From Deinococcales bacterium (GTDB taxonomy: Bacteria > Deinococcota > Deinococci > Deinococcales > JAAFIG01): a DNA stretch of 64,000 bases. Below, piece by piece: positions 2,042 to 41,181 of the stretch. Location: the NCBI GenBank assembly GCA_013298185.1, contig JAAFJQ010000003.1:694-64693 (forward strand), read 5' to 3'. A program made the translations under genes and the position numbers. Numbering within the stretch: position 1 is the stretch's first letter; each line of letters opens with the position of its first letter. The notes beneath the pieces were generated by a model. The model searched no databases. It had not been told where the DNA came from and saw only the letters and a program-made list of their open reading frames with translations.

Positions 2042-3223
2042 ATGCCTATGAAAACCCTTGATGCCCTCGAGTTAGACGGTAAGCGCGTTCTGGTTCGGGT
2101 GGATTACAACGTCCCGCTCGAGGATGGCGTGGTTTCTGATGACACGCGCATCGTGGCGAGCTTGCCAACCATTCGTAATTTGCTGAGCCGCAATGCCAGC
2201 GTGATTCTGATGAGCCACTTTGGTCGCCCCAAAGGTGTGGATGATAAATTCCGCCTTGCGCCTATTGTGCCTGTGCTGGAAAAAGCCCTTGGTCAGGGCG
2301 TGCAGTACATCAGTTCTAAACCCGCCAGTGCTGAGACGGCTCAAGCCCTGCAAAGCCTCAAACCCGGGCAAGTCGCGTTGCTCGAGAATGTGCGTTTTGA
2401 AAGCGGTGAGGAGAAAAACGATCCTGAATTGAACCGCGCCTTAGCTGCGCTTGGCGATGCCTTTGTGCTGGATGCTTTTGGTAGCGCTCACCGCGCTCAC
2501 TCGAGCGTGTCTGGTGTGGCTGGTTTGTTGCCTCATGCGGCTGGTTTCTTGCTCGAGAAAGAAGTGTCGCAACTTTCTAAGTTGCTGAATGACGCTGTGC
2601 AGCCTTACGCAGTGATTCTGGGCGGTGCAAAAGTCTCGGATAAAATTGCTGTGATTGAAAACCTGTTGCCTCGAGTTCAAACCATGTTGATTGGTGGGGC
2701 AATGGCATTTACGTTTATTAAAGCGATGGGCGGAAAAATTGGTAAGAGCCTTGTCGAAGACGATAAGCTCGACCTTGCTCGAGACATCCTAGCCAAAGCC
2801 AAAGCTCGAGGCGTGAATCTGCTGATTCCCACTGATATGGTGATTGCCCAAGAATTCAAGGAACACGCCGAGAATAAAGTCGTGCCAGCCGGTGAAATCC
2901 CTGATGATTGGATGGGCTTGGACATTGGACCCGCTTCGACGGCTGCGTATATCGCTGCGCTGCAAGGTGCTAAAACCGTGTTCTGGAATGGACCGATGGG
3001 GGTTTTTGAAATGAAACCCTTTGACACAGGCACTTTCGCGCTTGCTAAAGCCGTGGCGGATTTATCCGCGACTGCCTTCACTGTGGTTGGAGGCGGCGAT
3101 AGCGTGGCAGCCATCAACGACTCTGGCAATGCCCCAAAAATTGGGCATATCAGCACGGGCGGCGGCGCGAGTCTCGAGTTGCTCGAGGGCAAAACCTTGC
3201 CTGGTGTGGCGGCACTCGAGTAA
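2042..3223 (+). CDS. pgk: phosphoglycerate kinase
   Basis: 393 aa. Motifs [20 protein letters not shown] and STGGGASLE. The start could also be the ATG at 2048. Confidence 0.95.
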
Positions 3224-3830
3224 AGATTTGTCCGTCAATAACTTCCTGATTTGAAATAAAAATGTAACTCAATCCTAAGTATTTAGGTGCAAAAAACTTA
3301 ACCCCACCTAGCGCCTCGAGTTGCTGCTCGAGGCTGGCTTTATCTTGGCTTGGGCGGCTGTTGGCATCGCCGGGCAGTGTACCAACCAGCACTTCTAAAG
3401 CATCAGGGTAGCCATCGGCGTCGTTGTCTGCTTCGAGTTTATAGTTCTGGTCATAGCGTTTTTGCAAGTCAGCTAATTTTTCACTTGGTTTGTCATCGCG
3501 TGAAGCTGGATTTGTGCCAACCATGCGTTCGATCACATCGGGGTAGCCATCGCGGTCTGTATCGCCGCCGTAACGCACTGCGCTGTAAATCGCATCGGTA
3601 ATGCTTTGTTTCTTGCCGCGCCAAAAACCCACAGCCAAACCAAAATTATTCCAAGGCGCGTCCCCTCGAGCATTCACATGACACATCTGACAATCGGCTT
3701 GTGCCAATGGGCTACTTGCCACCCGCTCGAGTTTGAGGACTTTATAAGCACTGCCTTCAAATCCACTGCGAGCCAGAACTACGCCGCCAGCCACAAAAGC
3801 CAGAACTCCAAGAAAACGCAAGGCAGTCAT
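3150..3830 (-). CDS. secreted protein with a CxxCH haem-c motif and two thrombospondin-type-3-like Ca-binding repeats
   Basis: N-terminal hydrophobic signal ([14 protein letters not shown]), CQMCH, and DTDRDGYPD and DNDADGYPD repeats. The last 24 codons overlap the pgk 3' end on the other strand, so the true C-terminus is uncertain. Confidence 0.55.
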
Positions 3831-20082: not shown

Positions 20083-23000
20083 ATGAAGCGCTTCCTCTTT
20101 CCTCTCCTCACCCTTAGCGCTTTTGCCTCAGCGCAAGAAAACAGTTTGCAGCTCGGGCAGCCTCGAGCCATGATTCAGCCCGAGGCAGTGTCTGGTTTTA
20201 ACTTGGGCAACATGATGAACATTGTCGAGAACCAAAAAGCCTTGCAAGCCCTGAATCCAAAAATTGTGCGTTTTCCTGCTGGCAATGTCGGCGATGACCA
20301 AGACCTGAACGCCTCGAGCATGAGGATATTTGGGATTAACTTGCGCCTTCTCGAGCAAAAAGGGGTTCGCCCCAAAGTAATTATTCAAACGAGGGCTTTT
20401 CAGGGCGCTCGAGGAAATGGGAAAAACCGCGCTGAGGATGCGGCTGAGGCGGCTCGGCTAGCGATTCAGAATAAGATCAAAGTGGCTTATTGGAGCGTAG
20501 GCAACGAGCCAAATTTGTATGCCGTGACTCGAGGCGATAAGAGTTGGACGGTTGAGAAATACTGCGATACCTTTAAGGCACACCGAACTGCGATTTTAGG
20601 CGTGCAACCCGATGCGAAGTTCGCGGGTCCAAGTACCACTGGTGATGCGGCGTTTCTCGAGGGTTTTGTGCGCTTGTGCGGCGATCAGATTGATGTGTTG
20701 ACTTGGCATGTGTACCCCACAGACGGACGAGCCACCAACGAAGCCGCGATTGCCACCATCGAGAGGGTTGATAATGAACGCGAGCAGTACATGAACCTCT
20801 GGAAAGACCCTGAGAAAAACCCGCTTGCGTATCAAAAACAAATTGGGTTTGGTTTGACCGAGTACGGTTTGTCGTACCGCACCGAAAGCAATCGTCATAT
20901 TGCCGATCAATTGGCGGGTTTGTGGGCAGCCGAAACCACTTTGCGGATGGCGAGTGCTGGTGCGACCCTGAACACGTATTTTGCTTTGCAGGGCATTGGT
21001 GGGCATGGCACACTGGATATTTCAGGTGTGCCTCGAGCCACGTATTATGCTTTTCGGCATTTGCAGAACTTTGCTGGGCAGGCGTTTCAGGTTAGCTCGA
21101 GCAACCAAAAAGTCTGGCTTCATGCGGCGCAAAAAGACAATTTGCTGACGGTGATGGCGATCAACCCCTTTGATGAGCCTCAGAATCTCGAGACAACACT
21201 GGCTGGTTGGCAACTCATTGGTGTGAAGGGCTTTACCAATGCTGTGGTGCAAGCCGAAAAACCCGATTTGGCGCTCAAGCTCGAGGCACAAATTGCACTG
21301 CCAGCCCAGAGTTTTTGGCGCTTGGTGTATCGCCGCCCGACCACTGCCCAAAAACCCAATGTGCCACTGGCATTGGCATGGCGCGAGGGCAATTACCGCG
21401 CTCCTCCTGCGCCAGAATTCAAAACGGCTCGCTATGCCCCGCCTTACCCGACCAATGTTTGGTGGGGTTCGCTCTTGTGGGAAAAATTCTCGAGCGCATT
21501 GATGGCACAACCCCTTGCCCTGCAAGCCACGGCATCTGGGATGGCACTCAATTACCCTAAGCTCGAGGTCGGCACAGAAGGCTTCGCCACGCCGTTTTCG
21601 CCTGATGTCACGGTTGGACTCGAGGGGGTGGTTTTCCCCGATGCTCGAGTGGATGCTGCTTCAGAATTTTTGGTACGGGCTGAATTTAAACAAGGTAGTA
21701 ACACCCTCCACAGCACTTTTGGGCGCGGTTTACCGTTTGCTTGGTTTAAGAGCAGTGGCAAAACCTTTAAGCTCTCATTTCTCGAGACTCCACAAACTTG
21801 GGCGTTGCCGTGTCAAGGCATTCCCTGCGAGGCTCGAGGTTTACGTTTCGGTGGGCGGGATTATGTTTTATTCAGCTCGAGCCAAAGCAGTTGGCGTGGG
21901 AATGAACGAGAATGGACTATTTCTGGTGAGGATTTAAGCGTTGCAGCATTGCCAGAAGAAGCCCAACAAAATCCAGATTTACGTTTATCTGCCACGGCGT
22001 TTCTTGCAGCGCACCAAGTCATGCCAACCAATTCAAAAGTGACGATGCAATACCTCCCTGCCTCGAGCCAAGTTCAAACAACGCATCAACTCGAGACAGG
22101 CAGCCTCATGGGTTTATACCCGCATCAATGGAAAAATACCCAGACGAAACTCGAGCCTTGGAGCTATATTTCAGCTCGAGGGCAAATTCGTTTAGCAGCA
22201 AGCAATTCTTTTGAAACGATCACCAATTACACGGGCATTCTGCCTAATTTGCCGCTCAGTGCAGACCAAGCGGCTCGAGATTCACTTCGTACAGCGTTGC
22301 TCGAGTTTGTGGCTCTGAAACGCTTCTTTCCGCTCTCGCCCGAGAGCATTCGGATTACCGATTCCTACACCGATGCTCGGAATTTTGGGCGCTTGAGCCA
22401 AATGCTCGAGGTGGCTGACCAATTGGGTGAAAAAGAAGCTGCTCAGACGATTCTGAATGCCCTCAGAGAACGGTTGGATGAATGGTTTGACCCTGCACCA
22501 CCTCATGCGCTTTTGTGGGACGGGCGTTGGGGAACTCTGATTCCTGTGCCAGCTTCGCACGGGGCAGATTATCAATTGAATGACCATCACTTTAATTTTG
22601 GGTACTTTTTGCAAGCAGCTGCCAGTGTCGCCGAACGCGACCCAACTTGGCTCGAGAAAAACCGAGCTTTGCTGGATGTATTAGCTCGAGAAATTGCTGC
22701 GCCTGACAATGACCCTGCTTTTACGCAGCACCGAAATTTTGATGCCTATGCAGGTCATTCATGGGCAAGCGGCGACACCCGAGGGCAAATGCGTGGCGCA
22801 AACCAAGAAAGCTCGAGTGAAGCCGTGAATGCTTGGGCGGGTCTGATTCGCTATGCCCAAGTCAGTCAAAACACTGCCCTGCTCGAGCATGGCATTGGCA
22901 TGTATGCCCTCGAGACCAACGCGGTTTGGCAGTATTGGTTTTCGGCTGGTGGGAATTTCCCGAGCGGTTATCCAAAAACCACGCTTGGTATCTTGTGGGG

Positions 23001-23475
23001 CAACGGCGGTGAGTACAACACATGGTGGACGAATTCTCGAGGGGCGATTCATTTGATTCAAGCCCTGCCGCTGACTGGCTCGAGTTTGTATTTGGCACGG
23101 GAAACCGATTTTGTGCAGAAGAACTTTGCGATGATTGGCGACCAGCGTTACTTCAATGATTTATCAGCGATGTACTTGGCACTCTCTAACCCAGATCAGG
23201 GGTTTTCGCTCTGGAATCAAGAATTGCGTCCTGAATTTGGGAATTCACTGACCCAAACCAAAAACTGGTTCTCGAGTTTGCAGTTTTACGGTTCACCTAT
23301 GCAGAGCATCAGCGCCAATGTGCCGCAATTCGCGGTTTTTCAAAAAAACAAAACCAGAACCTATGTCGCTTATAACCCAAGCCAAAGCACTCAAATCGCC
23401 ACCTTCTCCGATGGTACGACCCTTTCCATGCCAGCCCATCGCTATGCCCAAATCCAACTCGAGGTTCAACCATGA
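20083..23475 (+). CDS. secreted two-domain glycoside hydrolase: clan GH-A TIM-barrel domain plus GH81 endo-beta-1,3-glucanase domain
   Basis: Signal peptide MKRFLFPLLTLSAFASAQE. The N-terminal half has VRFPAGN, GNEPN and TEYG (acid/base and nucleophile Glu). The C-terminal half has the GH81 signatures NDHHFNFGYF, GHSWASG and NQESSSE. Confidence 0.8.
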   Translation: MKRFLFPLLTLSAFASAQENSLQLGQPRAMIQPEAVSGFNLGNMMNIVENQKALQALNPKIVRFPAGNVGDDQDLNASSMRIFGINLRLLEQKGVRPKVIIQTRAFQGARGNGKNRAEDAAEAARLAIQNKIKVAYWSVGNEPNLYAVTRGDKSWTVEKYCDTFKAHRTAILGVQPDAKFAGPSTTGDAAFLEGFVRLCGDQIDVLTWHVYPTDGRATNEAAIATIERVDNEREQYMNLWKDPEKNPLAYQKQIGFGLTEYGLSYRTESNRHIADQLAGLWAAETTLRMASAGATLNTYFALQGIGGHGTLDISGVPRATYYAFRHLQNFAGQAFQVSSSNQKVWLHAAQKDNLLTVMAINPFDEPQNLETTLAGWQLIGVKGFTNAVVQAEKPDLALKLEAQIALPAQSFWRLVYRRPTTAQKPNVPLALAWREGNYRAPPAPEFKTARYAPPYPTNVWWGSLLWEKFSSALMAQPLALQATASGMALNYPKLEVGTEGFATPFSPDVTVGLEGVVFPDARVDAASEFLVRAEFKQGSNTLHSTFGRGLPFAWFKSSGKTFKLSFLETPQTWALPCQGIPCEARGLRFGGRDYVLFSSSQSSWRGNEREWTISGEDLSVAALPEEAQQNPDLRLSATAFLAAHQVMPTNSKVTMQYLPASSQVQTTHQLETGSLMGLYPHQWKNTQTKLEPWSYISARGQIRLAASNSFETITNYTGILPNLPLSADQAARDSLRTALLEFVALKRFFPLSPESIRITDSYTDARNFGRLSQMLEVADQLGEKEAAQTILNALRERLDEWFDPAPPHALLWDGRWGTLIPVPASHGADYQLNDHHFNFGYFLQAAASVAERDPTWLEKNRALLDVLAREIAAPDNDPAFTQHRNFDAYAGHSWASGDTRGQMRGANQESSSEAVNAWAGLIRYAQVSQNTALLEHGIGMYALETNAVWQYWFSAGGNFPSGYPKTTLGILWGNGGEYNTWWTNSRGAIHLIQALPLTGSSLYLARETDFVQKNFAMIGDQRYFNDLSAMYLALSNPDQGFSLWNQELRPEFGNSLTQTKNWFSSLQFYGSPMQSISANVPQFAVFQKNKTRTYVAYNPSQSTQIATFSDGTTLSMPAHRYAQIQLEVQP

Positions 23476-24851
23476 CACAAGTAAAAGAAAAACCTGCCCT
23501 CCTCCGCCAAGCCTTCCCCAAGAATTTTGTTTGGGGAACAGCCACCGCTTCTTATCAAATCGAAGGCGCAGCCAACCTCGAGGGGCGCAGTCCGAGCATC
23601 TGGGACGTGTTTGCTAAAATGCCTGGTAAAGTCAAAAATGGAGACACGGGCGATGTGGCTTGTGACCATTATCATCGTTACGAATCGGATTTTGATTTGA
23701 TGCAGAGCCTTGGTTTCAATGCGTATCGCTTTTCGATGTCGTGGTCGCGGGTGCTGCCCAATGGTCGTGGGCAAGTCAACCAAAAAGGCGTGGCATTTTA
23801 TGACCGTATTGTGGATGCACTGCTGGCTCGAGGGATTGAACCGTATGTGACGCTGTACCACTGGGATTTACCACAAGTTCTCGAGGAGACTGGCGGCTGG
23901 CTCAACCGTGATACGGCTGATGCTTTTGTCGAGTATACCGACCTCATGACCAATGCCCTTGGCGACCGCCTGAAGAACTGGGCAACGCTGAATGAACCTT
24001 GGTGTTCGGCATTTTTGGGGCATGGTGTTGGGATTCATGCCCCGGGCAAAACCGATTTTGCAGCTTCGCTGCAAGCTGCTCATCATTTGCTGCTGGCGCA
24101 CGGACAAGCCATGCCAATCATTCGCCAAAATGTGCCTGATGCCAGTGCTGGGATTGTGCTGAATCCAGCGCCAGTTTATCCAGCTTCGGACTCGAGCGAG
24201 GATTTGGCTGCGGCGCATCGCGCCGATGGCTTCCAGAACCGTTGGTACTTCGACCCTGTGTTTGGCAAGGGTTACCCAGAAGATCTATGGCAAGCTTATG
24301 GAAAACATGCACCCAAAATCCAAGACGGGGACCTCGAGAAAATCGCTGCACCACTGGATTACATCGGCATCAATTACTACAGCCGCACTGTGGTCAAAGC
24401 TGCACCGATCCAAGACACTCCTTTTCCTTGGGCATTGTTGGGTTATGAGCATATGCAACTCGAAAATGTGCCACGCACTTTTTTTGACTGGGAGGTCTAC
24501 CCACAAGGGCTGACCGATTTCTTGGTGCGTCTACAAAACGAGTACCAACCCAAAAGTATCTTGATTACTGAAAACGGCGCGACCTACCAAGACCAACTGC
24601 ATAACAGTCAAATCAATGACCTCGAGCGGACTGCATATTTTGAGCAGCACCTCAGTGCCAGCCTCAAAGCCATTGGGCAGGGCGCGAAGTTGCACGGTTA
24701 TTTTGCATGGAGTTTTTTAGATAATTTTGAATGGGCAGAAGGGTATGAAAAACGCTTTGGCATGACCTACGTGGACTTTCAGACCCAAAAGCGAATCGTG
24801 AAGCACTCAGGGCGCTGGTTTCAGGCATTTTTGGGGGAGAAATCCTTATGA
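23472..24851 (+). CDS. GH1 beta-glucosidase
   Basis: 459 aa. Motifs FVWGTATASYQIEGA, TLNEPW and ITENGA. ATGA overlap with the upstream gene. Confidence 0.93.
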   Translation: MTQVKEKPALLRQAFPKNFVWGTATASYQIEGAANLEGRSPSIWDVFAKMPGKVKNGDTGDVACDHYHRYESDFDLMQSLGFNAYRFSMSWSRVLPNGRGQVNQKGVAFYDRIVDALLARGIEPYVTLYHWDLPQVLEETGGWLNRDTADAFVEYTDLMTNALGDRLKNWATLNEPWCSAFLGHGVGIHAPGKTDFAASLQAAHHLLLAHGQAMPIIRQNVPDASAGIVLNPAPVYPASDSSEDLAAAHRADGFQNRWYFDPVFGKGYPEDLWQAYGKHAPKIQDGDLEKIAAPLDYIGINYYSRTVVKAAPIQDTPFPWALLGYEHMQLENVPRTFFDWEVYPQGLTDFLVRLQNEYQPKSILITENGATYQDQLHNSQINDLERTAYFEQHLSASLKAIGQGAKLHGYFAWSFLDNFEWAEGYEKRFGMTYVDFQTQKRIVKHSGRWFQAFLGEKSL

Positions 24852-26470
24852 CCCAAACCCTCGAGCCTCCTCAAACCCTAGCTTTGATTGAAAACCCGAT
24901 TCTGCCGGGTTTTCATGCCGACCCAAGCATCTTGCGGGTAGGACAGGATTATTACATTGCCACCAGCACCTTTGAATGGTTTCCGGGGGTGCGGATTCAT
25001 CACAGCCGCGACCTTGTGCATTGGCGCACGATCAAACCGCCTTTGCGCCGCTCGAGCCAGTTGGACATGATCGGCAATCCGAACTCGTGTGGCATTTGGG
25101 CGCCTTGTTTAAGTCATGATGGTGAGCAGTTTCATTTGATTTACACCGATGTCAAAACATGGGGCGTACAAGAAGTGTTTAAGGACACCCACAATTATTT
25201 GGTCACCACCACCGACATCGAAGGCGAATGGTCAGAGCCGATTTACCTCAACTCGAGTGGCTTTGACCCCAGCTTGTTTCATGACACCGATGGGCGCAAG
25301 TGGTTGGTCAACATGCGTTGGGATCACCGTGCAGGCAAGAATCCTTTCTCTGGGATTTTGCTGCAAGAATACGACCCCAAAGCCAAAAAACTGGTTGGGG
25401 AAATCAAAAACATCTTTCTTGGCTCGCCGCTTGGTTTGGTCGAAGGCGCACACCTGTACAAACGCAATGGTTGGTATTACTTGCTGACCGCCGAGGGCGG
25501 CACCAGTTACGAACACGCCGCTACCCTGGCTCGCTCGAGAACTTTGGATGGAGATTACGAAATTCACCCAAAAAACCCACTGATCAGTTCATGGAAACAA
25601 CCTCATCTCGAGATTCAAAAAGCTGGTCATGCCAGTTTGGTCGAAACCCAAACTGGCGATTGGTACATGGCGCATTTGTGTGGTCGCCCGATTGAACCCA
25701 TCGGTGAGCGCGGTTTCTGCCCACTTGGGCGCGAAACCAGCTTACAAGCGATGGAATGGCAAGATGACTGGCTGTACGTCAAGGGCGGCGGCAACAGCCC
25801 CAAAGCGCAAGTGCCACATCCAAACCTGACCCCACATCCTTGGAAAGTCGCGCCTGCTCGAGACGACTTTGACTCGAGTGAGTTGTCGTTGGATTGGCAG
25901 AGTCAACGCATCCCAATAGATAATACTTGGCTGAGTCTGACTGAACGCCCAAGTCATGTGCGCTTGTTTGGTCGTGAGAGCCTACAAAGCCACCATCATC
26001 AAAGCCTGATTGGACGACGCTTGCAGCACTTTCATGCCACCGCCAGCACCAAACTCGAGTTTCACCCGAAGCATTTTCAGCAGATGGCGGGTATGGCAGT
26101 GTATTACGACACCAAGCACTGGGTCTATTTGCGTGTCTCGAGAGACGAAGTGCTTGGAAAAACCTTGAACATCTTGGTCAATGATGCCAATCGGTACTCT
26201 GAACCACTGCCGCAAGAGGTCTCCATCGAAAGTCTCGAGGCTGTCCATTTACAAGTGCAGTTCAAGCGCAAAACTTTTTCTTTTGCTTACTCGAGCGACG
26301 GAGAGAATTGGACACCGATTGGTGAAGATTTTGAATTGTATAAGCTCTCTGATGACTACTGCAATGGCTTGTCGTTTACAGGTGTGTTTATTGCCCTGTG
26401 CGCTCAGGACTTGGCAGGGACAAGATTAGCAGCAGACTTTGATTACTTTGAATATCACTCAGGGGATTAG
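24848..26470 (+). CDS. GH43 glycoside hydrolase (beta-xylosidase/arabinofuranosidase type) with a C-terminal beta-sandwich
   Basis: 540 aa. NPILPGFHADPSI and YYIATSTFEWFPG. ATGA overlap with GH1. Confidence 0.88.
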   Translation: MTQTLEPPQTLALIENPILPGFHADPSILRVGQDYYIATSTFEWFPGVRIHHSRDLVHWRTIKPPLRRSSQLDMIGNPNSCGIWAPCLSHDGEQFHLIYTDVKTWGVQEVFKDTHNYLVTTTDIEGEWSEPIYLNSSGFDPSLFHDTDGRKWLVNMRWDHRAGKNPFSGILLQEYDPKAKKLVGEIKNIFLGSPLGLVEGAHLYKRNGWYYLLTAEGGTSYEHAATLARSRTLDGDYEIHPKNPLISSWKQPHLEIQKAGHASLVETQTGDWYMAHLCGRPIEPIGERGFCPLGRETSLQAMEWQDDWLYVKGGGNSPKAQVPHPNLTPHPWKVAPARDDFDSSELSLDWQSQRIPIDNTWLSLTERPSHVRLFGRESLQSHHHQSLIGRRLQHFHATASTKLEFHPKHFQQMAGMAVYYDTKHWVYLRVSRDEVLGKTLNILVNDANRYSEPLPQEVSIESLEAVHLQVQFKRKTFSFAYSSDGENWTPIGEDFELYKLSDDYCNGLSFTGVFIALCAQDLAGTRLAADFDYFEYHSGD

Positions 26471-30855: not shown

Positions 30856-31566
30856 TTATTTCAGCGCTGCTAAATCCGTTTTCGCTCGAGCCAAATCCAA
30901 TTGCTCAGCAGCGTCCTTGGGTTTTAGAATAACGGCTTCCTCGAGCAGGTTTACGGCTTTCTCAAGGTATTTTTTCTTATCAACCAGCACCAGTGCATAG
31001 GCATACTCGACTTTGGGTATGATCATTTTCGGCTCGAGTTTGATCGCACGTTCAAAGTACCCAATTGCCGCTTCAAAATTCGCGCCGTACAACCAACCCA
31101 CGCCTTTGGCAACAATTTCACTGTGCCACAGACCATATGCCACCAGACTCTGCACATGCTTAGGTTCAAATTGCAAAGCACTGTCCAAAGCCTCACGGAT
31201 TTGACTACCAAGCCCTTGGGATAAGGCTGCCAGCACACCACGCAACTGACTTAAACGCCCCAAAGCTCGAGCCAGTTCAAAATACGCATCCGAGTTTTTA
31301 TTGTCCAAAGCAATGGCTTTACGAGCGTACTGTTCGGCTTTTACATAAATCGGTTCTTGTTTACTTTCAGGCATGGTCAACGCATAGGTGTTGGTGGCTT
31401 TAGCTGCCAGTGTCTGCCCATCGGAGGTTGGCAGATCATCTGCCATTTCGGCTGCGCCCTTAAAATCGCCTTTGCTGTACAAGGCTTTGGCAGCCTCGAG
31501 CGAACGGTTCTGAGCAAGGCTCAAACCAAGAAAAAGCATCAAACAACAAGCCAAAAAGTTCTTCAT
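30856..31566 (-). CDS. secreted TPR/Sel1-like repeat protein
   Basis: 236 aa. Signal peptide MKNFLACCLMLFLGLSLAQ followed by repeated A/Y/G helical-pair patterns. Confidence 0.6.
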   Translation of the reverse strand: MKNFLACCLMLFLGLSLAQNRSLEAAKALYSKGDFKGAAEMADDLPTSDGQTLAAKATNTYALTMPESKQEPIYVKAEQYARKAIALDNKNSDAYFELARALGRLSQLRGVLAALSQGLGSQIREALDSALQFEPKHVQSLVAYGLWHSEIVAKGVGWLYGANFEAAIGYFERAIKLEPKMIIPKVEYAYALVLVDKKKYLEKAVNLLEEAVILKPKDAAEQLDLARAKTDLAALK

Positions 31567-31659
31567 GCAAAGATTTTACTGCTCAAAGCCAAAAAATTCT
31601 ATTGGGTGATTTTATCCCGTCCTCTTGTTCCCATGACAATCTCGAGCTATGCTTATTAC

Positions 31660-33186
31660 ATGAAAAGTTCACAAGTCATGACGGCACTGGCAATTATTTT
31701 TGGACTTGGTGCAATTGGAGTGGCATTGCGCTCGGCTGGAGCGGGTGAAACACGCCCGATGCGCCCCACAAGTTTGCATGGCGCTCATATGAGTCTGGCT
31801 AATCCAGCCACCAGTGGCAAAGTCCCAGCGCTGCTGGATTACATTCCTAATTATTACCAGCATGTCAAACCAATCCTCGAGGCAAATTGTGTTTCGTGTC
31901 ATGTCAAGGACGGCATTGCACCTTTTGCCTTAACCAGTTTTGAAGATGCCAAAGCCAATCATCGGCAAATTTATTTGGACACCCGCGCTCAAAGAATGCC
32001 GCCTTTTCCACCCAACGGTGAAAGCCCTAAGTTTAAGCACGAATTGCGTATCAGCCAAGAAGAAATTGCGATTCTTGCCAATTGGTCATGGAGTGGCGCT
32101 CCGGCTGGCGATAGTAAAAAAGCGGTTTCAGCGGTTTCAAAAGTCTCGAGGGTCAATATCCGTCAGGACTTGAAGCTCTCAATGCCCAAAGTTTTTATGC
32201 CAAACGACAAGTTATCCGATGAGTACCGCTGCTTTATTGTTGACCCAAAACTCGAGGGTGAACGGTTTATTACGGGGTACGACATCCTACCCGGCAATGC
32301 AGCCGTGGTACATCATGTGCTGATGTTTGAACTCGAGAACAGCCTGATTCCCGAGGCTCAAAAACTTGAACGTGAAGAAGGCGACAACCGCGATGGTTAC
32401 ACCTGCTTTGGTGGACCAAGGGTAGCCAATGGCTTGCAACCTATTGGTGCTTGGGCGCCTGGTAGCCCAGCTGTAAAATTTCCTGAAGGCACTGGTATTC
32501 GCCTGAAAACTGGTTCGCAACTGTTGCTGCAAGTGCATTACAACCTTGCCAACGGCTCAAAACCAGATCAGAGCGCAGTGAAACTCGAGGTTGCACCAAT
32601 TGGTACTCGCTTAAAAGCGATTCTCAATTTTGCCCCAACTGCCCCGGTTGAACTGCCCTGCCCGGGGGCTTACCCAAGCGATCCGAAAAATCCTTGTAAC
32701 CGCGAAGCTGCTTATGATCGTGTTCTTGCCTTGAATAACTCGAGTGGCAACCGCAACCGCAAAGGAGGCAGTGTCTTACGCAGTTGTGTTCGTAACTTGG
32801 AGCAGTACATCAATGGTTCGGACGCAACCAACATTGAAACCGTTTGCGAATACCCAGTTCCAGCCAATTTAACGCTGCATGGTTTAGCTGGTCACATGCA
32901 CTACCTTGGTAAAAGCATTAAGCTCGAGATCAACCCAAACCGAGCCAATCGCACGGTGCTGCTTGATATCCCCAACTGGGATTTCCACTGGCAAGGTTTT
33001 TACTGGTTTGAAAAACCAGTAGCGGTTCAACCCGGCGATGTTTTCCGAATCACTTGTGTTTTTGATAACAGCCAAGCCAACCAACCGTACCTTGGCGGCG
33101 AGCAACGCAAACCCAAATACTTGGTTTGGGGCGAAGGCACAGAAGAAGAAATGTGCTTGGGCTATATCCAAACCACCCTAAATTAA
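31660..33186 (+). CDS. membrane-anchored CxxCH-motif protein fused to a PHM/DBH-like type II copper monooxygenase
   Basis: N-terminal anchor VMTALAIIFGLGAIGVAL and haem motif CVSCH. Motifs VVHHVLMF, LLLQVHYN, GHMHYLGK and EEMCLGY align with the PHM copper ligands (HH, H, HxH, M). The start could also be the ATG at 31633. Confidence 0.75.
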   Translation: MKSSQVMTALAIIFGLGAIGVALRSAGAGETRPMRPTSLHGAHMSLANPATSGKVPALLDYIPNYYQHVKPILEANCVSCHVKDGIAPFALTSFEDAKANHRQIYLDTRAQRMPPFPPNGESPKFKHELRISQEEIAILANWSWSGAPAGDSKKAVSAVSKVSRVNIRQDLKLSMPKVFMPNDKLSDEYRCFIVDPKLEGERFITGYDILPGNAAVVHHVLMFELENSLIPEAQKLEREEGDNRDGYTCFGGPRVANGLQPIGAWAPGSPAVKFPEGTGIRLKTGSQLLLQVHYNLANGSKPDQSAVKLEVAPIGTRLKAILNFAPTAPVELPCPGAYPSDPKNPCNREAAYDRVLALNNSSGNRNRKGGSVLRSCVRNLEQYINGSDATNIETVCEYPVPANLTLHGLAGHMHYLGKSIKLEINPNRANRTVLLDIPNWDFHWQGFYWFEKPVAVQPGDVFRITCVFDNSQANQPYLGGEQRKPKYLVWGEGTEEEMCLGYIQTTLN

Positions 33187-33196
33187 AGTTTCTCGA

Positions 33197-33245
33197 GGCA
33201 CACGCCCTGTTTTCCAGCAGGGCGTGTGCCTTGGTTTTATTTGTG
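33197..33245 (+). terminator. intrinsic terminator
   Basis: 13-bp stem GGCACACGCCCTG/CAGGGCGTGTGCC followed by TTGGTTTTATTTG. Confidence 0.75.
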
Positions 33246-33276: not shown

Positions 33277-34752
33277 ATGCCCGAAGAAACCAAATCCGCT
33301 ACGCCACTCGAGGATAAAATCGTTACCACCCAGCATAGCCTGATGCTGCGCGGTAAAAAACTCGAATACACAGCTCGAGCTGGCACAATTGTGCTGCGTG
33401 ATGAAAAAGAAAAAGATGGTGTCTCGGAAGGAAACCAAGACCAAGCACAACTCTTCTTCGTGGCGTACACCTTAAATGGGGTTAAAGACCTCGGTAGCCG
33501 CCCAATTACCTTTTGTTTCAATGGTGGTCCTGGCAGCTCGAGTGTTTGGTTGCACATGGGCGTGTTCGGTCCGCGCAGGGTCGTCATGGGCGATGCTGGC
33601 GCACTACTACCCGCACCGTTTGGACTCGAGGATAATCCACAAACCATGCTCGAGCATTCGGATATGGTCTTCATAGACCCTGTTGGCACGGGTTTCTCGA
33701 GGGTGGCGCAGGGCGGTAAAGCCAAGGATTTTTATGGGTTTACGCGCGACATCGAATCAGTTGGGGATTTTATTCGGTTGTTTGTCAGCCGTGATGGGCG
33801 CTGGCTATCGCCGAAGTTCTTGGCTGGCGAGAGCTACGGTACAACTCGAGCCAGTGGTTTAGCGGGGTATTTGCAAGAGCGTCATGGGATGTACTTAAAC
33901 GGTATCACGCTGGTTTCGACGGTGCTGGATTTTTCAACCATTCGTTTTTCACTTGGCAATGATTTACCACACACGTTGTACTTACCAGCTTTCGCGGCGA
34001 CTGCTTATTATCATGGTGTAACCAGAGGCGCATCGTTAGAAACCCATTTGCGTCAAGCCGAGGAATTTGCCCAAGGCGCGTACATGAGCGCCTTGTTTAA
34101 GGGACATCGGCTCGAGGGTAATGACCAAACCCGAGTGGTGCGCGAAGTGGCACGTTTAACTGGAGTCTCGAGGGATTTTGTGGAGCGTTCTAACCTTCGC
34201 CTCGAGATCATGCGTTTTTGCAAAGAATTGCTGCGCCACAAGGGTCTGACCGTTGGGCGCTTAGACTCGAGATTCACCGCCACAGACCGAGATTCAGCCG
34301 GAGAGACTTTTGAATTTGACCCAAGTTACGCCGCGATTTATGGGGCATACACCGCCGCTTTTAATCAGTATGTGCGCTCTGAGTTGGGTTTTGAAACTGA
34401 TACAACTTATGAAATCCTGAACTTCAAGGTTTTCCAGCCGTGGAGTTACAAAGAATTCGAGAACCGCTACGTCAATGTCTCTGAAACCCTGCGAAAAGCC
34501 ATGACCATGAATCCAAGTCTGCGGGTACTGGTCTTAAATGGTTATTATGACCTTGCCACACCATACTGGGCTTCGGATTATGTGTTTGACCACTTGGGTA
34601 TTCCGCAGCACTTGCGCGAAAACCTAGAAACCAAGTACTACCAAGCGGGTCATATGATGTACGTGCATCAAGAAAGTTTAGAGCAGATGGCAACCGACAT
34701 CAAAGGTTTTATTGGACGCAGCGTACCAAGCAACAAGAAACGCAAAACCTAG
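33277..34752 (+). CDS. serine carboxypeptidase, peptidase family S10
   Basis: 491 aa. NGGPGSSSVWLHMGVFGP and the catalytic-Ser motif GESYG. Confidence 0.85.
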   Translation: MPEETKSATPLEDKIVTTQHSLMLRGKKLEYTARAGTIVLRDEKEKDGVSEGNQDQAQLFFVAYTLNGVKDLGSRPITFCFNGGPGSSSVWLHMGVFGPRRVVMGDAGALLPAPFGLEDNPQTMLEHSDMVFIDPVGTGFSRVAQGGKAKDFYGFTRDIESVGDFIRLFVSRDGRWLSPKFLAGESYGTTRASGLAGYLQERHGMYLNGITLVSTVLDFSTIRFSLGNDLPHTLYLPAFAATAYYHGVTRGASLETHLRQAEEFAQGAYMSALFKGHRLEGNDQTRVVREVARLTGVSRDFVERSNLRLEIMRFCKELLRHKGLTVGRLDSRFTATDRDSAGETFEFDPSYAAIYGAYTAAFNQYVRSELGFETDTTYEILNFKVFQPWSYKEFENRYVNVSETLRKAMTMNPSLRVLVLNGYYDLATPYWASDYVFDHLGIPQHLRENLETKYYQAGHMMYVHQESLEQMATDIKGFIGRSVPSNKKRKT

Positions 34753-39684: not shown

Positions 39685-41181
39685 TTGTCTTATGCTAAAC
39701 CCATGATTGGCAAATTGGTGATGGTGGATATTCCCGATCCACAGCTTAGCGAAGCAACCCGAATTCATCTAAGTCGTTTTCAACCTGGCGGAATTATTTT
39801 ATTTCGCAAGAACCTAATTGATGCTGCCCAAGCCCAAAATTTGGTTCTCGAGTTAAAAGCCTTACTTGGCAACGACCTGCTGATTGCGATTGACATGGAA
39901 GGCGGCGGAGTTTGGCGTACCAATTTTTTGCCGTATGCGCCAAGTGCCATGAATTTAGGAGCTTCCAATGACCCAGCTTTGGCTCGAGCCATTGGTGCTT
40001 TGGTAGGACGCGGTTTACGCAGCTTGGGCATCAATTGGAATTTTGCTCCTGTGCTGGATGTAAACAACAACCCTGCCAATCCCGTGATTTCTGATCGCAG
40101 TTTTGGCGAGAACCCAAAACAAGTCTCGGCGCTTGGCATGGCTTGGGCAGAAGGGCTGATGGAAGCTGGTGTGGCAGCTTGCGCTAAGCATTTCCCCGGG
40201 CATGGCGACACACACCTGGATTCGCATTTGGCATTACCCACCGTGACCAGAAACCTCGAGGGTCTGGAAGAATACGAACTCGTACCCTTTCGAGCAGCTG
40301 TGGCACAAAGCCTGCCCAGCATCATGACAGCACATATTATTTACCCTGCCATAGACCCAGATTTCCCCGCGACCTTATCGAAAAAAATCTTAACTGGTTT
40401 GCTGCGTGAACGCGCCAATTACCAAGGCGTGATTGTCACCGACAGCATGGGCATGGACGCGATAGATAAAAACTATGGGCGCGGCGAAGCGGCTGTGCTG
40501 AGCATTCAAGCTGGTGCGGACATGATCGAAGCCCTTGGTAGCCAAGCCTCGCAGGAAAAAACCTTTTTGGCACTCGAGGCGGCAGTGCAGAACAATGAAA
40601 TTTCAAAACAACGCATCGAAGAAAGCCTTGCACGCCTACAAAAACTGGCTCAGCGCTTTCCAATTGCGCCGCTCGAGTATAGCCAAAATCAGCAGGATTT
40701 GGATTCTAAAACCATGCAAGCTGCGTGGCAACGCGGCATTGTGGCGTATCAAAACCCAAGTCTGCCTGAGCTGGGTACAAACCTAACATTGCTGGTTGCC
40801 ACCGAAGAGCAAAGCCATAATGTCTCTGAACTTGGCATCAGCGGCTCGAGCTTAGCAGCTGCTCTAGGCAATCTGTACCAACTCGAAACGATTTTGTATG
40901 ACCACAAAAACCCATTGGCTGCCCTCGAGTTGCTTCAAAATACCAAGCACCCGATTATTTTTGCCAGCACCAGCCGTAGGCGCTTAAGCGAGGAGGTCAA
41001 AACCTTGGTGAAAGCCGCTCATCCGACGCTGCACTTGGCACTTTGGAATGCCTATAACGTGCTGGATGTTCCTGCCCCAGCTTTAATAACCTTTGGCTAC
41101 CGCCCAGAAGCCATTGCTGCCCTGCTCGAGGTGTTGCGCGGACAGGCACAAATCACAGGTCAAGCGCCAATTCAACTTTAA
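39685..41181 (+). CDS. nagZ: GH3 beta-N-acetylhexosaminidase (NagZ-like) with a C-terminal extension
   Basis: IDMEGGGVWR and KHFPGHGDTHLDSH. The start may be the ATG at 39703. Confidence 0.85.
   Translation: MSYAKPMIGKLVMVDIPDPQLSEATRIHLSRFQPGGIILFRKNLIDAAQAQNLVLELKALLGNDLLIAIDMEGGGVWRTNFLPYAPSAMNLGASNDPALARAIGALVGRGLRSLGINWNFAPVLDVNNNPANPVISDRSFGENPKQVSALGMAWAEGLMEAGVAACAKHFPGHGDTHLDSHLALPTVTRNLEGLEEYELVPFRAAVAQSLPSIMTAHIIYPAIDPDFPATLSKKILTGLLRERANYQGVIVTDSMGMDAIDKNYGRGEAAVLSIQAGADMIEALGSQASQEKTFLALEAAVQNNEISKQRIEESLARLQKLAQRFPIAPLEYSQNQQDLDSKTMQAAWQRGIVAYQNPSLPELGTNLTLLVATEEQSHNVSELGISGSSLAAALGNLYQLETILYDHKNPLAALELLQNTKHPIIFASTSRRRLSEEVKTLVKAAHPTLHLALWNAYNVLDVPAPALITFGYRPEAIAALLEVLRGQAQITGQAPIQL

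Follow-up and report, generated by a model that had tools for sequence, protein, structure and literature searches.

A PHM/DBH-like copper monooxygenase homologue with a tethered, predicted haem c module in a Deinococcales bacterium

A stretch of 64,000 nucleotides from a Deinococcales bacterium, referred to here as the window, carries on its forward strand a gene for a protein of 508 amino acids that is the subject of the present analysis and is designated the haem c-tethered PHM/DBH-like copper monooxygenase gene (Table 1). It is likely that its product is an exported, membrane-anchored enzyme of three modules, in which an anchor helix is followed by a mono-haem cytochrome c and by a non-coupled binuclear copper core of the type known from peptidylglycine alpha-hydroxylating monooxygenase (PHM) and from DBH, and that the gene is monocistronic and the substrate something other than peptidylglycine. 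An earlier note on this DNA had proposed the complete set of copper ligands and the fusion to a CxxCH motif, and had taken a neighbouring gene for an S10 carboxypeptidase as a hint at a peptide substrate. The architecture is upheld by the analysis described below, the hint is not.

Both halves of the copper core, which the earlier note had expected from a scan with hidden Markov models, were found above their Pfam cutoffs, Cu2_monooxygen (PF01082) with an E-value of 4e-10 and 40.3 bits against a cutoff of 30 and Cu2_monoox_C (PF03712) with 5e-12 and 45.9 bits against a cutoff of 23. When all PDB sequences were searched with phmmer, only PHM (7.5e-7) and DBH (2e-5) were matched, and the VHH, QVHY and HxH motifs of the monooxygenase were paired with H107/H108, H172 and H242/H244 of PHM. 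A profile of 56 family members matched DBH at an E-value of 2e-9 with every ligand motif aligned, including the (D/E)EMC motif of the family, which was paired with EEMC of DBH, the site of the Met ligand. An AF2 model built on an alignment of 56 sequences with 36-82% identity to the query (alignment A1) reached a mean pLDDT of 87.9 and a pTM of 0.83, with residues 18-50 as the only stretch of low confidence (pLDDT <50). Comparison of this model with the PDB by Foldseek agreed with the likeness to PHM that the earlier note had seen by eye. Human DBH (4zel) was the best match (1.1e-15) and was followed by about 30 PHM entries (about 1e-15 to 1e-12) that span the whole PHM catalytic core, with TM-scores of 0.64-0.68 when normalised to PHM, while all further matches were at least five orders of magnitude weaker and unrelated.

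The ligands of both coppers are invariant in all 56 sequences of A1, namely H218, H219 and H293 for CuH (counterparts of PHM H107, H108 and H172) and H412, H414 and M498 for CuM (counterparts of PHM H242, H244 and M314). The strings in which the earlier note had recognised them are all present, VVHHVLMF at residues 216-223, LLLQVHYN at 288-295, GHMHYLGK at 411-418 and EEMCLGY at 496-502, and so are the cysteine-containing strings YRCF (189-192), CFGGP (249-253) and ITCVF (464-468) as well as CVSCH (77-81). Also invariant are M413 within the HMH triplet, where PHM has HTH, and Q291 and Q445, the equivalents of PHM Q170 and Q272; at the position of Y189, which corresponds to PHM Y79, 55 of the 56 sequences have Tyr. 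Eight cysteines are kept throughout the alignment, four of which (C191, C249, C466 and C499) match C81, C126, C293 and C315 of PHM. The residues that anchor peptidylglycine in PHM are treated differently: the position of R240 is occupied by A, Q, L or I and never by Arg, that of N316 by L, V or I and never by Asn, and that of Y318 is Tyr in only ten of the 56 sequences, Y502 of the query among them. Since the catalytic residues of PHM and DBH are kept and the peptidylglycine anchors are not, the protein would combine a catalytic machinery of the PHM/DBH type with a different substrate pocket, and its substrate is predicted not to be peptidylglycine. Alignments and model together give good support to the classification of the protein as a homologue of the PHM/DBH-type two-copper monooxygenases with a complete ligand set.

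The two copper domains are separated by an insertion of about 60 residues (approximately residues 326-386), for which no PHM counterpart appeared in the phmmer and profile alignments and which carries the residues E331, C334, C346, R348 and C376, all invariant in A1. This insertion is a candidate for a lid or for the substrate pocket.

Ahead of the copper core, the protein begins with a hydrophobic helix, in agreement with the membrane anchor of the earlier note; the Kyte-Doolittle maximum is 2.5 at residues 9-23, and the helix is predicted to place the rest of the monooxygenase outside the cytoplasm. It is followed by the module that contains the CxxCH motif, which thus comes after the export or anchor helix, as the attachment of haem c requires. 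The fusion of this motif to the copper core is a property of the family: C77, C80, H81 and M113-P114-P115 are invariant in A1, and 44 of the 56 relatives match Cytochrome_CBB3 at an E-value of 0.01 or better (best 4e-6). The secondary structure predicted by AF2 follows the four-helix class I pattern with CxxCH at the end of helix 1. M113 lies between the helices of residues 101-109 and 133-144 in the loop preceding the last helix, and from its position and conservation it is a candidate for the sixth haem ligand. A profile of the isolated domain (A2) matched the haem c region of hydrazine synthase alpha (5C2V) at 1e-5 and PccH (4RLR) at 3e-4, and, with marginal E-values, the whole length of cytochromes c552 and c6. 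The motifs CxxCH, HH, HMH and (D/E)MC were present in all 118 hits of at least 458 amino acids among the best 120, of which two short hits (296 and 432 amino acids) were without CxxCH, and in a further 144 representatives of 50%-identity clusters CxxCH was found in 137 (about 95%) and MPP in 138.

The linker between the helix and the cytochrome module, itself modelled with low confidence, contains a His/Met-rich motif, H40-G-A-H43-M44 in the query. Motifs of this kind (HGH, HAH, HSH, HxxHM) stand directly behind the anchor helix in about one third of the relatives, and similar ones, NHAHR and NHMHR, occur in the split-gene monooxygenases described below. The motif may serve in copper capture.

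Independent support for the suggestion of the earlier note that the haem domain is a built-in electron donor came from a second group of paralogues in Deinococcota, in which cytochrome and monooxygenase are encoded by two adjacent genes (five genomes; Table 1). In each pair, a gene for a secreted cytochrome c of 122-147 amino acids is located directly upstream of a gene for an anchored monooxygenase of about 410 amino acids, and both products bear their own export signal, a signal peptide in the cytochrome and an anchor helix in the monooxygenase. In one of the Deinococcales loci (L042), the cytochrome piece matches residues 62-154 of the query (46% identity, E 1e-26) and the monooxygenase piece residues 168-503 (39% identity, E 2e-87), so that the point of the split coincides exactly with the domain boundary in the query. 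The occurrence of fused and split forms is classical evidence that cytochrome and monooxygenase form a functional pair, and the cytochrome module is probably a dedicated partner that feeds electrons to the copper core. From fused and split cytochrome c alike we infer that a protein donor rather than ascorbate is the reductant. Two Deinococcales metagenome-assembled genomes (MAGs) carry one fused copy and one split paralogue on different contigs (L003 and L036; L004 and L046).

On the basis of this anatomy, with the modules in the order anchor, haem c, CuH domain, insertion and CuM domain, and of the established chemistry of PHM and DBH, the following course of the reaction is proposed. Periplasmic or respiratory carriers would reduce the haem and would thereby take the place that ascorbate has in the eukaryotic enzymes. 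The haem would then hand single electrons to CuH, its domain being tethered by only about 20 residues, and the electrons would cross the cleft from CuH to CuM. There, O2 bound to CuM would attack a C-H bond of the substrate by hydrogen abstraction, and the hydroxylated product would form.

The family to which the protein belongs is very large, and the protein is a typical representative of it. A word-index search yielded more than 2,000 relatives, and a scan of one genome per species recovered a relative in at least 581 species, a number that is to be read as a lower bound. An exhaustive HMMER search over 1.84 billion cluster representatives (50%-identity clusters) yielded 10,094 matches at E<=1e-3, 5,042 at <=1e-10 and 1,624 at <=1e-30, and nearly all of the best 150 matches align from about residue 60 and hence include the cytochrome module. 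The family occurs in Deinococcota, Chloroflexota, Actinomycetota, Myxococcota, Gemmatimonadota and other phyla; carriers include Deinococcales, Thermaceae and Meiothermus, Anaerolineae, Phototrophicaceae and Thermoflexus, Gaiellaceae, Thermoleophilia and Microthrixaceae, Gemmatimonadota, Oligoflexus and Bradymonadaceae, and, within Myxococcota, Sorangium cellulosum So ce56, Nannocystis and Polyangium. It is readily detectable by Pfam and not rare, and its members bear database names such as 'monooxygenase', 'Copper type II ascorbate-dependent monooxygenase C-terminal domain', 'mono/diheme cytochrome c family protein' or 'hypothetical protein'. No NCBIfam model exists for the protein, nor did full-text searches of the literature turn up published work on bacterial members; databases detect the protein, while a study of it is not apparent.

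Several architectural variants were observed in the family, among them secreted forms without a haem domain, forms of about 830 amino acids with two cytochrome-type domains and a protein of 1,064 amino acids with EF-hand motifs (P0143, P0160, P0175, P0180, P0200; P0208, P0218; P0178). One Myxococcales MAG (L049) contains two complete copies of the haem-copper monooxygenase gene in tandem. This is the only true tandem duplicate; the 'upstream paralogues' that Gaiellaceae loci seemed to contain proved to be spurious high-GC open reading frames (ORFs) without any of the motifs.

The best available lead to a substrate comes from a further variant. In 11 of the top 150 cluster representatives (P0131, P0136, P0137, P0151, P0154, P0161, P0183, P0197, P0201, P0204 and P0207), a YceI-like domain (PF04264) stands ahead of the cytochrome and copper modules, and the same fusion is encoded in 6 of 85 loci (L009, L018, L022, L071, L072 and L074), which belong to Chloroflexota, Actinomycetota and Gemmatimonadota. 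YceI-like proteins resemble lipocalins and bind polyisoprenoid or lipid ligands in the periplasm. Because of these fusions and of the anchoring at the membrane surface, the substrate may be a lipophilic or isoprenoid molecule of the envelope, or a quinol may be the electron donor. A wider proposal would be that the family constitutes a large bacterial class of ascorbate-independent enzymes that are wired by cytochrome c to the respiratory chain and act by hydroxylation on a lipophilic constituent of the envelope, for example an isoprenoid, a quinone or a polyprenol; we regard this as speculative and, for the time being, rather doubtful.

A number of points weigh against the tethered haem-copper enzyme outlined above or against its extension to a lipophilic substrate. 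Haem, copper and activity are predictions from the sequence and the AF2 model, the copper sites being assigned from the alignment and the proximity of haem and CuH being presumed. The cytochrome-like domain that the earlier note had expected in a scan with hidden Markov models was found in the relatives but not in the query itself, whose Cytochrome_CBB3 score of 16.2 bits lies below the cutoff of 27, and the best Foldseek match of the isolated N-terminal domain, cytochrome c-551, was not significant (E 0.68). A few family members have no haem domain, so that the copper core can presumably work with other donors. The YceI fusions are found in relatives at only 30-40% identity, and their YceI domain might just as well be the binding site of a quinol donor as of a substrate. 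Finally, no genomic context indicative of a substrate was found in 80 related loci and the close relatives.

This lack of context is one argument for a first alternative, according to which the protein is an oxidase or detoxifier with O2, superoxide or peroxide as the acceptor of respiratory electrons, or serves in copper handling, with no organic substrate being involved. Clustering of the ORFs within 6 kb of the monooxygenase in the 80 loci brought out only lineage-specific housekeeping genes (glycosyltransferase, methylmalonyl-CoA mutase, SDR and aldo-keto reductase genes) and neither a conserved partner nor a gene related to a substrate, and in the window, too, the gene stands alone among housekeeping genes. 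The His/Met-rich linker motifs would suit copper traffic, and enzymes of the PHM type do consume O2 uncoupled from substrate. This alternative is nevertheless improbable in view of a complete CuM site with its Met ligand, of the strict conservation of the Q170 and Q272 equivalents and the near-invariance of the Y79 equivalent, and of a disulfide-rich insertion with E331 and R348 kept at the interdomain cleft, as would be expected for a substrate pocket; in addition, the YceI fusions, being ligand-binding, point to an organic ligand.

A second alternative is that the CxxCH region binds no haem and represents a structural, disulfide or metal-binding remnant, with the copper core receiving its electrons from a small molecule or from another protein. 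It draws on the cytochrome score of the query below the Pfam threshold, on the non-significant Foldseek result for the N-terminal domain and on the haemless family members, and it is very unlikely given that C, C, H and M-P-P do not vary in the 56 diverse sequences, that Cytochrome_CBB3 is matched by most relatives, that the domain profile finds genuine haem c domains, that the split monooxygenase gene adjoins a gene for a separate secreted protein about as large as a cytochrome c, and that the module is placed behind the export signal.

The neighbourhood of the gene bears on the suggestion of the earlier note that 'a secreted S10 carboxypeptidase' encoded 90 nt downstream might hint at a peptide substrate. 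The gap and the identity were correct, as the downstream gene begins 90 nt past the monooxygenase stop codon and matches Pfam Peptidase_S10 (E 7e-16). The attribute 'secreted' did not stand, since the S10 N-terminus has no hydrophobic segment or signal peptide (Kyte-Doolittle maximum of 0.04 in the first 60 residues); the S10 protein would presumably be cytoplasmic and the monooxygenase exported, which places them in different compartments. Directly past the monooxygenase stop codon, a perfect 19-bp hairpin followed by a T-run separates the two genes, with a folding energy of -36.1 kcal/mol and a z-score of -7.3; none of 200 shuffled sequences folded as well, and the hairpin is likely an intrinsic terminator. 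No S10 homologue was detected by tblastn in the 80 related loci with flanks of up to 10 kb, and the gene is likewise missing downstream of the monooxygenase in all seven close relatives with 76% to at least 90% identity. Their downstream genes encode an alpha/beta-hydrolase (P0002, 85% identity; P0266, at least 90%), a sugar-binding protein (P0003, 84%), an erythromycin esterase on the opposite strand (P0004, 82%), an M42 (M42/M20) peptidase (P0007, 80%), GatB (P0008, 76%) and a CoA-binding protein on the opposite strand (P0272, at least 90%). Furthermore, the collection holds 15 relatives of the monooxygenase at 90% identity or more and none of the S10 protein. The S10 gene appears to be a chance neighbour in this genome only, unrelated to the monooxygenase, whose gene is predicted to be monocistronic. 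A peptide-modifying enzyme that hydroxylates peptidylglycine or peptide C-termini, with the adjacent S10 carboxypeptidase producing or trimming its substrate, would accord with the homology to PHM, with the same-strand S10 gene so close by, with the M42/M20 peptidase gene downstream in one 80%-identical relative and with the alignment of Y502 with PHM Y318, and is hardly credible when the S10 gene is absent from every related locus and close relative including the orthologues at 90% identity and above, a strong terminator and different compartments stand between the two, and neither R240 nor N316 is kept.

The remaining surroundings of the gene offer few regularities. Its flanking genes encode SurE, TPR, S10, VWA, T2SS ATPase and cupin proteins, and the window around it consists of housekeeping and glycoside hydrolase genes. 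Searches with TPR, SurE, VWA and two further neighbours gave no match in the same 80 loci by tblastn. The sole recurring neighbours are SurE, in three of the closest relatives, and the divergently transcribed secreted TPR protein, in four; the order SurE-TPR-monooxygenase recurs in L083, L084 and L086, and TPR is also found in L087, where the contig end hides SurE. Both are absent from the relatives at 76-82% identity. The idea that the TPR protein acts as a CcmH/CycH-like chaperone of apocytochromes was considered and discarded, as its Pfam score of 33 bits is below the cutoff of 42 and an unrelated TPR protein of the window scores similarly; the match looks like a generic TPR cross-match. 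No PAL lyase domain was found within the monooxygenase or among the flanking genes, and the window contains neither a second monooxygenase copy nor a YceI gene. No obvious ribosome-binding site precedes either of the two possible start codons of the monooxygenase gene, ATG 31660 and ATG 31633. Elsewhere in the window, unrelated glycoside hydrolase genes and an ORF with a CxxCH motif but no Pfam match at E<=1e-5 were noted. The positions of all features are compiled in Table 1.

Table 1. Coordinates of the monooxygenase gene, its predicted modules and sites, neighbouring features of the window, and loci of related genes in other genomes.
Feature	Sequence	Position (nt)	Strand	Residues	Remark
Haem c-tethered PHM/DBH-like copper monooxygenase gene	window	31660..33186	+		508 aa
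Alternative start ATG	window	31633	+		27 nt further upstream; 517 aa; NCBI call for the identical protein P0001
Single long ORF containing the gene	window	31357-33186	+		from the ORF list
N-terminal hydrophobic helix	window	31666..31725	+	3-22	signal anchor or signal peptide; AF2 helix, hydropathy
Low-confidence linker	window	31726..31821	+	23-54	conserved ETRP and His/Met-rich motif
His/Met-rich motif H-G-A-H-M	window	31777-31791	+	40-44	candidate copper-capture motif
Mono-haem cytochrome c-type domain	window	31822..32109	+	55-150	four helices (predicted)
CVSCH haem c attachment motif	window	31888..31902	+	77-81	C77/C80/H81, invariant
M113-P114-P115	window	31996..32004	+	113-115	invariant; candidate distal Met haem ligand
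CuH (electron-entry) domain	window	32173..32553	+	172-298	Pfam Cu2_monooxygen
CuH ligands H218, H219	window	32311-32316	+	218, 219	predicted
CuH ligand H293	window	32536-32538	+	293	predicted
Interdomain insertion	window	32635..32817	+	~326-386	family-specific, mostly helical
CuM (O2/substrate) domain	window	32818..33168	+	387-503	Pfam Cu2_monoox_C
CuM ligands H412, H414	window	32893-32901	+	412, 414	invariant HMH; predicted
CuM ligand M498	window	33151-33153	+	498	predicted
Intrinsic-terminator-like hairpin	window	33193..33244	+		19-bp stem, 4-nt loop, T-rich tail
Peptidase_S10 gene	window	33277..34752	+		apparent chance neighbour outside the system
Secreted TPR protein gene	window	30856..31566	-		divergently transcribed; 236 aa
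Glycoside hydrolase genes	window	20083-26470, 39685-41181	+		GH81, GH43 beta-xylosidase-like, GH3; unrelated
ORF with CxxCH	window	3150-3830	-		226 aa
Split-gene pair, Thermaceae	L030	517-2138			cytochrome gene and monooxygenase gene
Split-gene pair, Deinococcales	L036	669-2316			as above
Split-gene pair, Deinococcales	L042	162-1853			as above
Split-gene pair, Deinococcales	L046	4720-6359			as above
Split-gene pair, Meiothermus	L077	9899-11530			as above
Tandem haem-copper monooxygenase genes, Myxococcales MAG	L049	9797-12842			two complete copies

Copper enzymes of the PHM/DBH type make amidated hormones and noradrenaline in animals, and how electrons cross the solvent gap of about 11 Å between the two coppers of PHM and DBH is still debated. 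What is new relative to the characterised enzymes is a core of this type with its own predicted haem c donor, in bacteria. A bacterial homologue with all catalytic residues and a tethered haem should be easy to express and would offer an optical handle for timing the entry of electrons, and its occurrence in the genomes of at least 581 species would imply a common oxidative reaction at the bacterial cell surface. In the annotation 'ascorbate-dependent monooxygenase', the reductant is probably misnamed. If the proposal of respiratory-wired lipophilic hydroxylases were true, the family would be the prokaryotic counterpart, and possibly the ancestor, of the enzymes that make hormones and neurotransmitters in animals, and, as a natural system whose built-in electron donor can be followed by spectroscopy, it would lend itself to the study of CuH-to-CuM transfer.

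Compared with known systems, the protein is closest in its copper core to PHM, the catalytic core of PAM (1PHM, 1OPM, 1SDW), with which it shares the two-domain beta-sandwich fold (Foldseek E about 2e-15), the three His ligands of CuH and the two His and one Met ligands of CuM, equivalents of Y79, Q170 and Q272, and equivalents of the cysteines of C81-C126 and C293-C315, and to DBH, tyramine beta-monooxygenase and MOXD1 (4ZEL), among which DBH is its best structural and profile match. It differs from PHM, at 16-20% identity, in its bacterial origin and its N-terminal helix as membrane anchor, in the fused haem c domain as presumed donor in place of ascorbate, in the helical, Cys-rich interdomain insertion of about 60 residues and in HMH instead of HTH at CuM, and it lacks the R240 and N316 anchors as well as a PAL partner nearby. 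DBH likewise has an extra N-terminal domain ahead of its copper core, which is a DOMON domain whereas that of the query is a c-type cytochrome by prediction; the query has neither the C-terminal dimerisation domain of DBH nor a conserved substrate pocket. For the N-terminal module, the nearest relatives by sequence are the haem c domain of hydrazine synthase alpha (5C2V) and PccH (4RLR), with which it shares the pattern (T/Y)Y..D(V/I).PI(L/F)...C..CH and a later helix L(S/T)..E...(L/I)..W, although the likeness is confined to short segments and the catalytic contexts of these proteins are unrelated. A class I cytochrome c is also fused as periplasmic single-electron donor in three-domain copper nitrite reductases and in subunit II of caa3 oxidase; these cytochrome-tethered enzymes have unrelated copper domains (cupredoxin type 1/type 2 Cu or CuA) and reduce nitrite or O2. 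The query shares their design logic and differs from them in its copper fold, that of PHM, and in the C-H hydroxylation presumed for it. Proteins of the same family and architecture are those of Deinococcus yavapaiensis (P0056) and of the Sorangium cellulosum So ce56 locus (L070), which are annotated as 'monooxygenase' or with the name of the C-terminal domain of copper type II ascorbate-dependent monooxygenases.

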